IMG/VR virus record: IMGVR_UViG_2548876867_000015
Span: 1 to 40,160 of that record
DNA length: 40,160 bases
Reading direction: 5' to 3' (one strand)
Source of the DNA: a virus
Lineage: Duplodnaviria; Heunggongvirae; Uroviricota; Caudoviricetes
Shown: positions 3,001 through 6,000 of the stretch, piece after piece
Layout of the letters: each line of letters begins with the position of its first letter
How positions within the stretch are numbered: the first letter of the stretch is position 1
Made by a program: the position numbers

Positions 3001-6000
3001 CCTCTGGAGGAACTCCCGCTATCACCGCAGCAAGAGAACTCACACTAAGCCACTGATTTAATGATTCACTTGTTAGACCAGCAGACATTGCAACCACCAT
3101 TTACTGTTCATGACACCCCCTTAGTTGAGTGGGTATATCATACACAACAAACCATATATGGATAAACATAATTTAATTTTATGAATGGAAGAAAGAACAG
3201 GAGCAATTATCTATTAAGTGTTCAAAATTACATTATATATAATTAGGTGAGTTTAGATATATTTATTATATGCCATATATTGACTTATACCTTGAATTTA
3301 TTTGGTGAGGATTCATCAGTAATAAAGAAAGTTTAAATAACAAAAAAACTTATTTTTATAACGCATTGAAAACAGGCAACCCCATCAATGTGGGGTTGCC
3401 TGTTTCAATCTTTGTACACCTAAAACGAACAAAAGAAAAAATACTCATGCACTCCTGACAGACTGCATCCCCCTATATTTTTTCCAACATCTTCTTATTG
3501 TTTTATTTATTGGCATTTCTATCAACTTGAATGATAGTATTGATGCAATAATAGAAACAAACAAAGATAAAACAACATACACCAACATATCGATAAAGTT
3601 GTCTTTTTCTACGCTCAATATTTTTGTTACTATTTGAATAATCATCCAGTGAAACATATAAAATGAAAAAGAAGCCTCGCCAAGCAAAACCATAAATCTA
3701 TTTTTAAGAATTTTAGATAATATCCCACCATTAAAAGCAAAGGCAATAACTATAAATGCCATGCAAGGAATATATAGAACATCATACTTTATATTCATAT
3801 ATGTAATATAGTTTGTTGCTATATATACTGTCAAAAGCAATGACAATATTGCTGCAATTTCAATGATACTGCAAACAGTATTGTTAGGTCTTGCACTAGT
3901 ATTAATAAATACTCTACAGAGCATCATCCCTATAATAAAATCACCAATTCTAAATGCTGGGTTTATATAAAACAACCAGTGCTGTGATATTGTTATGGGC
4001 GGGTTAATTAAGAAATAGAAATTAATCACAAGAACAAATAACAGAACACAGGCTAAATATTTTGTTTTTAGCCTTGTTAAGAAGCAGAATGAAACGTAGA
4101 AAAACATCTCACATGAGATACTCCATGAAACGGAGTTAAAAGAAAAATAATAATCCTGAATTGGGATAAATGACTGCACCAGAAACACATTTGAAATAAG
4201 CATTTCCTTACTAATACCATCACCCATCTTACCATGCATAAATATTAAAATAAAGCAAAGAAGAGCTACAATATGCACAGGAAATATTCTTGCTATTCTG
4301 TACACAATAAAATCTTTATTGCTGAATGCTTCTTTTTTTACATGATTTATGAAACTATAGTTTATAATAAAACCAGAAAGAATGTAGAAAAATGTCACAC
4401 CTATGTAACCATTAAAAAAATACTTTGCCGCAGTATTAAACACACCAATTGATGATTGAGACAATAGCCCAAGGTGACTAACAAAAACACCAAGAGCTGC
4501 AAACATTCTCAACGATGTAAGACTTTGAATTATATTACCTTTATTATTCATAACTCTGCCGGAATGGTTGAAATTTCCGGCAGATTAGATTAACATATTA
4601 ATTATGTCAATGTTTGTATAGTTAGAACTCCCTTACATCTGCACCAGAAGACGCACTCCACACCGAAGAAGGAGAGCCATTTACACCGATCAATCTTACC
4701 TTCAACCCATTACCACTTGCTTTTGGAGAAGTTAAATTTACAGCCGATGGATTTATTGCCCAATCACCACCATTCAATATGACACTCATTTCAACAACAC
4801 CACCATTGTCAATATCAATTATAGGTGTTTGCACTACTGGACTTTGTTGGTCAATTGGTAGAAAGCCATTGACAATAATAGATGGGCGGAATGATGGGTT
4901 TCCCTGAACGCTAACACGCAATTGCCCCCCTTTAACAAATTCTGTTGCACAAGTATTCATGACAATGCAATACGGATTTACAAAATCAAATGCGTAGCAA
5001 GTTGATTCCCCATCCATTGGCGTGCAGTTTTCAGCTGTACAATTGGTCATGGTAGTATATTGCATCCCGGACATTCTAAATGACAACTGGTAACCATTAA
5101 CTTGAACAAGGCGCATATCCATAGAAGTGCCAATTACTTTTATTTGACCATCCCTAAAATCTTCAAACAAAACTCCAGCATATCCTTTCCCTGGATATTG
5201 TGGGAAACCGACCATTTCCATTACGCCAGAGAACGGCACATAAGAGAAGCATCCGATATAAGCACATTCAAAAATTGACTGTCTGATAACTGGTGCTGCT
5301 GATTTTCCTAAAAACAGTCCGTAATAATTTCTATAAGAATCTACATTTTCTTGTGTTAAGCCAAGCCTTCTAAACATGCAGTTTTCAACTCTACCGTTAA
5401 CACAAAATGAACTCATTGAGTTATCTGTTAGATCCCATTGCTTTGGTATAAAAGCACATAATGCATCCACCTGAAGAATTACTTCTCCATTTTTTGTGAG
5501 ATCTATTTTGTCATTTGTTGTTTTATAAAAAACTGTCGCTTCAGCCTTTCCCTGTCCTCTAATTCCCATATTGTCATAAATTGGGATTGTTTTTGATGTA
5601 TTTATGTTTCCAGCAGGAGCCTCTAGAATGCATTTGTTTGAGCGAGCAAAGTTAGTTGCAAGAGTTATAGCTGTTGCGTTATCTGTGACTCCGTCAGGTT
5701 TCACCCCCCAAAATTGCATGTCGTAAGTGGTAAAATTAATTCGTCTCCATACCATCGTTCCAGTTTCTGGATTGATTACAATTCCACCATCATCAGCCCA
5801 CGCCTGAATGTTATCAACAGACTCGAAAAAGCCGCCACCAAGGTGGTTTTCAGCATGTGTAGTGCTAGCTGCTGATGCTACGTATACAATCTGCCCCGCC
5901 TCCTCCGGAACACAGGAGCGAAGCTCTGAAAGATTAAGGAAGCGCTCCAGCGCATTAAATCCTGTTTTATCAAGAAGCTCCTCCCGCATGCTATTCAGGC

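Follow-up and report, generated by a model that had tools for sequence, protein, structure and literature searches.

The sequence analysed was the 40,160-nucleotide IMG/VR virus record IMGVR_UViG_2548876867_000015 (hereafter the window, meaning the whole of this stretch), and the element under study was a block at 3166-4621 carrying the gene of a membrane acyltransferase of the acyltransferase-3 (AT3) family. On the minus strand, the genes followed one another in the order tailspike (4622..6715), AT3 gene (3445..4551), holin-like membrane protein (2684..3100), holin, GH19-type endolysin, and Rz-like spanin. The AT3 gene ran in the same direction as the tailspike gene, and the 70 nt between the tailspike stop codon and the AT3 ATG contained no terminator. 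The GC content of the block was 29.5% (30% in the coding sequence) compared with 49% for the rest of the 40-kb window, which, together with the matches of the flanking genes, bore out the initial annotation of a very AT-rich block between the tailspike and lysis genes. The stretch 3101-4621 was 99.6% identical to Escherichia phage TL-2011b (NC_019445; host enterohaemorrhagic Escherichia coli (EHEC) O103:H25). The counterpart gene of TL-2011b, F365_gp49, is labelled “O-acetyltransferase” in RefSeq and “hypothetical protein” in the original GenBank record, and the window protein differed from gp49 at four residues. The IMG/VR contig L113 carried copies of the tailspike and of the acyltransferase that were both 100% identical to those of the window. 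The acyltransferase call is not new as an annotation, since RefSeq NC_019445 already names the gene so. As phage cargo, the gene is of an ordinary kind, with the conserved promoter and hairpin in front of it as its sole less ordinary feature. Only the conserved layout of a promoter within a hairpin and the steady pairing of the gene with one tailspike receptor-binding domain (RBD) across several prophage types go beyond what databases and papers already hold.

The open reading frame (ORF) at 3445..4551 on the minus strand encoded 368 residues with about 10 transmembrane (TM) helices. Its score for the Pfam family Acyl_transf_3 (PF01757) was 86.8 bits, where the curated cut-off is 31, and residues 9-336 corresponded to profile positions 2-324 of 326; it also matched PHROG 3333 “O-acetyltransferase” at 1.6e-86. 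A review of AT3 proteins names the motifs R/K-X10-H, RXXR, and V-X-X-F-F-X-(I/V/L)-S-G-(F/W/Y) as essential or highly conserved (PMC9558356), and all three were found in the window protein. The first was present in TM1 as R15-X10-H26 and the second in the first cytoplasmic loop as R85-I-A-R88; these residues were invariant in 27 homologues with 32-64% identity. The third was present as V52TFFYILSGF61, with a conservative replacement of the second F by Y, and residues V52, F54, F55, L58, S59, G60, and F61 were invariant across the same alignment, as were W143-S-x-S-x-E148 and others. The claim of a polytopic acyltransferase-3 protein of 368 residues was confirmed by the Pfam score and the three motifs. 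An AlphaFold2 model (predicted local distance difference test score 85.5, predicted template modelling score 0.86) contained about 10 long helices, was helical to the C-terminus, and showed no extra domain. The modelled fold resembled those of solved transmembrane acetyltransferases, and no sequence-level match to any PDB chain was obtained. A single Pfam domain was found in the 368 residues, with no fused periplasmic SGNH domain, and a PADLOC scan of the protein returned no family. The ratio of nonsynonymous to synonymous substitution (dN/dS) was 0.17 for the gene against an allele of 83% identity, which indicates purifying selection. The protein is intact and AT3-only, and it belongs with the Oac type of enzyme rather than with the AT3-SGNH type.

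Oac (OacA) of the Shigella phage Sf6, a Lederbergvirus, is also AT3-only and is also encoded next to the tailspike gene. The two proteins were aligned by hhalign with a probability of 88% (E = 3e-6), and the R-X10-H, FFxxSG, and RXXR motifs fell into register, R11/H22 of Sf6 Oac with R15/H26 and R73/R76 with R85/R88. The RXXR residues have been reported as essential in the Shigella-phage OacA (PMC9558356). The target sugar of Sf6 Oac is known to be the rhamnose of the S. flexneri O-antigen. In contrast to the arrangement in the window, Sf6 oac and its tailspike gene converge, and a promoter of its own has been annotated for oac on the int side; the position of Sf6 oac was matched by homologues of the window gene that lay between tailspike and int in E. 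coli P22-like prophages. OafA and OafB of Salmonella (GtrC family II) share the AT3 domain with its R/K-X10-H and RXXR motifs, act on the O-antigen, and are often associated with prophages (PMC9558356). In these proteins, the final transfer is carried out by a periplasmic SGNH domain, which the window protein lacks. BTP1 gtrC, of this OafA/OafB type, matched the window protein at 24% identity. The eukaryotic proteins HGSNAT (human lysosomal heparan-alpha-glucosaminide N-acetyltransferase) and GWT1 were only 8-12% identical to the window protein, and they have extra domains and different acceptors.

The position of the gene agreed with that of known conversion genes. In epsilon15-like phages, serotype-conversion genes are known to occupy the junction where the tailspike and lysis genes meet. 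In phiV10, a Uetakevirus like the window phage, whose Oac is an O157 O-antigen O-acetyltransferase, the order was tail fibre, oac, gp27 membrane protein, holin, and endolysin, and the phiV10 record credits oac with acetylation of the O-antigen and with superinfection immunity. The phiV10 protein is also AT3-only (338 residues; PF01757, 124.6 bits), and its function has been tested experimentally, whereas that of the window protein is predicted. The upstream regulatory region of phiV10 oac was unrelated to that of the window gene. No literature was found on O103:H25 together with phiV10. In epsilon15, the same slot holds gp21 and gp22, which change the O-antigen recognised by the phage's own tailspike; unlike the window gene, these encode a Wzy-like polymerase and a polymerase inhibitor rather than an acyltransferase, and they lie on the opposite strand. 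The phiV10 gene is opposite in strand to its tailspike gene as well. The conversion genes of phiV10, epsilon15, and Sf6 thus all face the tailspike gene, whereas the window gene runs in the tailspike direction.

The initial annotation had given the moron a span of 3101-4621. A moron is an autonomous cargo unit in a phage genome, according to the definition of Hendrix and Juhala. The segment 3101-3165 on the minus strand aligned with the regions upstream of phiV10 gp27 and epsilon15 gp23, had matches of 92-94% in other E. coli prophages, and contained a conserved sequence common to the window, phiV10, and epsilon15 (CCATATATGGTTT.TTGTGTATGAT...AACTAAGGGGGT). For epsilon15, the equivalent place is marked in the phage's record as an RNase III site. 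Because of this alignment, the segment was assigned to the leader of the lysis cassette, which belongs to the backbone outside the moron, and the start of the cargo was moved from 3101 to about 3166; the span stood for 3166-4621 and was given up for 3101-3165. The leader and the N-terminus of the tailspike were shared between the window and its epsilon15-type relatives, and the lysis cassette is probably controlled separately, from a region downstream of the cargo. Within the corrected limits, the block had two marks of a moron, as the slot was filled by other genes in phiV10 and epsilon15 and the base composition was deviant. The prophage is epsilon15-like (Uetakevirus, TL-2011b-type), and its block 3166-4621 probably serves as a cassette for lysogenic conversion.

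The tailspike gene (4622..6715, minus strand, 697 residues) had PHROG tail-protein matches and an N-terminal anchor of the epsilon15/phiV10 type. The RBD comprised about residues 206-697 (nt 4622-6100). P22-like prophages of E. coli encoded tailspikes that were 92-94% identical to it (about residues 216-697), and over its full length the window tailspike was 76% identical to that of a Cronobacter epsilon15-like prophage. The subtype of this RBD has been predicted to be O103-specific, and its exchange between Uetake- and Lederbergviruses has been noted (PMC10408124, PMC11522302); for the earlier proposal that the adjacent tailspike recognises the O-antigen, the support came from this literature prediction. 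Among 5,426 complete E. coli genomes, the RBD was found in 6 and the 3' part of the tailspike gene alone in 2, and the AT3 gene followed directly in all 8. Alleles of the AT3 gene with 99, 83, 64, and 59% identity, from epsilon15-like and P22-like prophages, all followed the same O103-type RBD. Joint movement of the RBD and the AT3 gene as a single block was rejected. When the P22-like copies were compared with the window, the synonymous divergence (dS) was 0.26-0.28 for the RBD and 0.64 or saturated for the AT3 gene, which points to recombination between them. Since the adjacency was constant although dS differed, the linkage has been kept despite this recombination, which supports, without proving, a functional tie between the enzyme and the O-antigen recognised by the tailspike.

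In E. coli strains 33-6 and 58-3 (NZ_CP050031 and NZ_CP050036; matches H67 and H68), a further allele with 76% DNA identity extended over the AT3 gene and into the tailspike gene, of which it included the final ~500 nt. A remnant of the last ~60 nt of a tailspike gene, with no intact copy, preceded the AT3 gene in Franconibacter (L011, 7870-8000) and Cedecea (L099, 5870-6000), and likewise in an Acinetobacter metagenome-assembled genome (L016, upstream of 4388). These 3'-end remnants indicate a recombination joint inside the 3' end of the tailspike gene. In a P22-like remnant of E. coli WP8-S18-CRE-02 (L003, 8153-11285), an IS3-family insertion split the O103-type tailspike gene and left the AT3 gene intact, which suggests that the acyltransferase was kept after the phage itself had decayed.

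The AT3 subfamily contained 847 proteins at E <= 1e-10, all with generic names, and the 99% cluster of the window protein held 151 member sequences. A family-alignment profile search of species-representative genome contigs (one genome per species) returned mostly distant relatives from many phyla, and the neighbourhoods were read from individually chosen contigs. In Cronobacter epsilon15-like prophages, a homologue with 59% identity followed a 697-residue tailspike in the same layout. In E. coli, the 83% and 64% alleles followed P22-type tailspikes next to int, and other homologues followed Tail_spike_N-type tailspikes in Escherichia and Morganella prophages. The Cedecea homologue lay after the tail-fibre genes of a Mu-like prophage, beside gtrB/gtrC, and the Franconibacter homologue lay beside gtrABC with the tailspike remnant still in front. 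More distant relatives were located after other tail genes or beside gtr genes, unlike the alleles linked to the O103-type RBD.

In front of the AT3 gene, a -35-like hexamer TTGACA (4605..4610, minus strand) was located 11 nt past the tailspike stop codon, and a -10-like hexamer TAATCT (4582..4587, minus strand), which kept T1, A2, and T6 of the consensus (3/6), followed after a spacer of 17 nt. In 11 distinct upstream regions, TTGAC was invariant and the sixth base was A in 10. The TTGACA hexamer stood at a fixed position of -59 from the ATG in homologues whose coding sequences were saturated at synonymous sites, and the -10 was conserved in homologues in the form TA(A/C/T)(T/C)CT. The 17-nt spacer itself was only ~35% identical between the window and contig L007, which was close to random. 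The pattern TTGACA-N17-TANNNT occurred 3 times in the window against 0.35 expected, whereas a simple promoter scan found promoter-like sites in the AT-rich stretch at chance level (14 against 14.6 expected). The putative promoter draws its support from the rarity of the pattern and its conservation at a fixed distance from the ATG, and not from the simple scan. The hexamers and spacer of the TTGACA-17-TAATCT promoter in the initial annotation were present, with the reservation that the -10 matches the consensus at only half of its positions and escaped the scan.

These observations are best explained by a conversion function. We consider it likely that the prophage AT3 cassette, expressed from the conserved promoter, acylates the O-antigen of the host, alters its serotype, and excludes phages that use the same receptor. 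The enzyme would take up an acyl group in the cytoplasm, most likely acetyl donated by acetyl-CoA, carry it through the inner membrane, and place it on a sugar of the host O-antigen, predicted to be of the O103 type and to be the receptor of the phage's own tailspike. The lysogen would then have an altered serotype, and binding or cleavage by tailspikes of the same specificity would be hindered (superinfection exclusion). The substrate, the acyl group, and the exclusion phenotype are proposed here by analogy with Oac of phiV10 and Oac of Sf6. Given the strong genomic association and this analogy, O-antigen acetylation with exclusion of same-receptor phages appears to be the best-supported function.

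Several points weigh against this interpretation. None of the 847 homologues (E <= 1e-10) bore a characterised name, and no model was matched in an NCBIfam scan of the protein. The window protein had no detectable pairwise similarity to phiV10 Oac (BLASTP E = 0.33) and only 23% identity with Sf6 Oac. The unequal synonymous divergence implies that the AT3 gene and the RBD do not simply travel as one unit. In addition, the -10 was weak and the site was missed by the simple promoter scan, and the transcription start of the cassette is a predicted one.

The enzyme might instead acylate another envelope glycan, such as enterobacterial common antigen, capsule/K-antigen, colanic acid, the core of the lipopolysaccharide, or peptidoglycan, and its adjacency to the tailspike would then reflect only the usual cargo slot. 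AT3 proteins act on many different substrates (PMC9558356), the sequence offers no means of assigning the substrate, and the homologues occurred in many phyla under generic names only. This explanation is nevertheless improbable in view of the constant adjacency of the homologues to O-antigen-specific tailspikes and to gtr genes for O-antigen glucosylation in several genera, and of the proven O-antigen converters that occupy the same slot in phiV10 and epsilon15. For peptidoglycan in particular, the characterised O-acetyltransferase OatA is an AT3-SGNH fusion, unlike the AT3-only window protein of 368 residues. OatA is treated among the AT3-SGNH proteins in the review cited above (PMC9558356).

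The gene could also be cargo that has fallen silent or is in decay, without a current function in the lysogen, considering that the -10 is weak, that no clear Shine-Dalgarno sequence was found (GGCAGAGTT before the ATG), and that AT-rich DNA is typically silenced by H-NS. The reading frame was intact, however, the motifs were invariant over the 27 homologues, and the dN/dS of 0.17 was low. The regulatory elements were conserved while the adjacent bases were randomised, and the 99% cluster contained as many as 151 sequences. A loss of function is very improbable on these grounds. If the O103 O-antigen is indeed acetylated by the cassette, the serotype epitopes of lysogens of this phage family would be altered, and so would their sensitivity to O103-specific phages and to reagents based on tailspikes. 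Such changes would bear on how O103 Shiga-toxin-producing E. coli are typed, on their biocontrol by phages, and on their glycoconjugate diagnostics. A simple genomic rule would also follow from the constant pairing of the RBD with one AT3 subfamily, by which the O-antigen masked by a given prophage acyltransferase could be predicted. How lysogenic conversion is generally understood does not change with these findings.

A conserved hairpin, CTGCCGGAA-N10-TTCCGGCAG (4556..4583, minus strand; -19.3 kcal/mol, z = -5.0), was found just before the start codon. Its arms (4583..4575 and 4564..4556) formed 9 bp around a 10-nt loop, the 3' arm ended 4 nt before the ATG, and the 5' arm overlapped the -10 by 2 nt. 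The hairpin described as abutting the start codon was thus present. In 11 distinct sequences, 89.9% of the cells were paired, compared with 28-50% in controls with slid partners. Two stem pairs showed double changes (G-C to A-U), and several G.U wobbles were observed, including CTGCTGGAA/TTCTGGCAG in Cedecea and GGGA/TTCC in the P22-like group. The outer halves CTGCC/GGCAG were almost invariant in sequence, and one IMG/VR variant had a different, longer inner stem. In the RNAalifold consensus, the stem was extended to the A of the AUG with further covariation, the TAAY of the “-10” pairing with RUUA including that A. Because the bases of the “-10” are also paired in this consensus, its conservation has two possible causes. 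A scan of IMG/VR with the combined promoter-hairpin pattern returned 15 sites, 9 of which preceded AT3 homologues behind O103-type RBDs, the other 6 being unrelated chance matches.

With the usual distance of 7 nt from the -10 to the transcription start, transcription from the cassette's own promoter would begin at about 4575, where the 5' arm has its last base. In five homologues, the leader of ~24 nt from this predicted start showed no excess of structure over shuffled sequence, whereas long RNAs entering from the tailspike gene kept the hairpin in their folds (five RNAs). As the 5' arm lies upstream of the predicted start, the hairpin can form only in RNA that reads through from the tailspike gene. 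Because of the overlap between the -10 and the 5' arm, an own promoter and a hairpin in the 5' untranslated region cannot both hold for the same RNA. The earlier claim that the moron's own mRNA has such a hairpin was dropped, since RNA from its own promoter would not include the 5' arm. The hairpin is better read as a putative element of the read-through RNA.

A similar arrangement, fold-back inhibition of the translation of IS10/IS50 transposase, was reportedly described by Davis, Simons, and Kleckner in 1985. As in IS10/IS50, the ribosome-binding region is covered by the 3' arm of the inverted repeat in the window, the 5' arm precedes the gene's own transcription start, and only transcripts from outside would fold shut. 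The insertion sequences are a different kind of element, and the mechanism in the window is predicted from sequence, covariation, and folding alone. In the lysogen, the conserved TTGACA-17-TAATCT promoter would produce a transcript with a leader of ~24 nt and little structure. In the lytic cycle, read-through RNA from the tailspike gene would form the hairpin over the ribosome-binding region, and the gene might in this way be kept untranslated.

The inverted repeat could alternatively be a DNA operator over the -10 and +1, or an RNase III processing site or 3'-stabilising hairpin of the tailspike mRNA, rather than a translational fold-back. The near invariance of CTGCC/GGCAG exceeds what a purely structural stem needs, and in the coordinates of the predicted promoter the repeat reaches from about -8 to +20, where operators are commonly found; an RNase III site is annotated for epsilon15 in the neighbouring intergenic region. 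On the other hand, the G.U wobbles and the G-C to A-U swaps keep the RNA pairing and break the symmetry of the DNA, and the stem in the RNAalifold consensus reaches the A of the AUG with covariation of its own. The cassette was carried by four prophage types and several genera, which makes a phage-specific repressor unlikely. Taken together, these alternatives appear rather unlikely. A reading of CTGCC...GGCAG as a sigma-54 site or a known operator was rejected, since no fitting spacing was found.

Returning to the fold-back, we tentatively propose that the AT3 cassette may be a self-insulating conversion module, in which the promoter lies in the 5' half of the stem, so that the cassette's own transcripts would be open and the abundant read-through transcripts closed. 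Such a module might have spread by recombination, together with the O103-type tailspike 3' end, among epsilon15-like and P22-like prophages, coupling receptor specificity to the enzyme that masks the receptor. This is a possibility rather than a firm expectation. Related cassettes were associated with a remnant of the tailspike end in the Cedecea Mu-like prophage and the Franconibacter gtr island, and with other tailspikes in Escherichia and Morganella. Should the layout of a promoter within a hairpin be confirmed, it would illustrate a way for cargo in a late operon to escape mistimed expression.

Downstream of the gene, a perfect GC-rich hairpin of 15-16 bp (3370..3405) was located 40 nt after the AT3 stop codon. 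It was terminator-like on both strands, with z = -5.3 on the minus strand and -8.3 on the plus strand. A terminator scan called it on the plus strand only, and the U-run on the minus strand was UUUU, partly within the stem. The perfect 14-bp-stem terminator of the initial annotation was thus a real and slightly longer hairpin, whose terminator function on the strand of the gene is less clear because the U-run there is short and the call was made for the opposite strand. The same division applies to the proposal of an own promoter and terminator as a whole, with conserved hexamers and a strong hairpin on one side and the weak, scan-missed -10 and the short U-run on the other. Most AT3 homologues were followed by strong hairpins that were not homologous to this one, whereas the Cronobacter cassette was not.

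Between this hairpin and the lysis leader, an AT-rich spacer of 204 nt (3166..3369; ~26% GC) formed part of the cargo. It contained no convincing ORF (only ORFs of <=30 residues), and no ORF longer than 34 residues was found in 3101-3444. The stretch 3166-3444 had no match in the 5,426 complete E. coli genomes, and TL-2011b was the only match among phage records. An Rfam scan of 2900-4800 at E <= 1 returned nothing above threshold, and its chance matches were centred on the terminator hairpin. A candidate small RNA on the plus strand, running from a promoter-like site at 3252-3281 to the hairpin at 3370-3405, was rejected, as its promoter was at chance level and its match to JA01 was weak (27 bits against a threshold of 111).

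Two further regions of the window were noted. A second AT-rich island (8500-9900; GC 0.32-0.36) contained the plus-strand ORFs 8511..9374 (287 residues) and 9398..9901 (167 residues), for which no Pfam or PADLOC family was found. The equivalent stretch in the RefSeq record of TL-2011b is labelled only “similar to hypothetical protein”, and the island may be another cargo unit, with no function assigned. The ORF at 1-516 encoded a lipoprotein-like product with a glycine-zipper domain, with Rick_17kDa_Anti above threshold and TraT below it, and the label “DNA methyltransferase” given to its equivalent in the TL-2011b RefSeq record looks like a misannotation.

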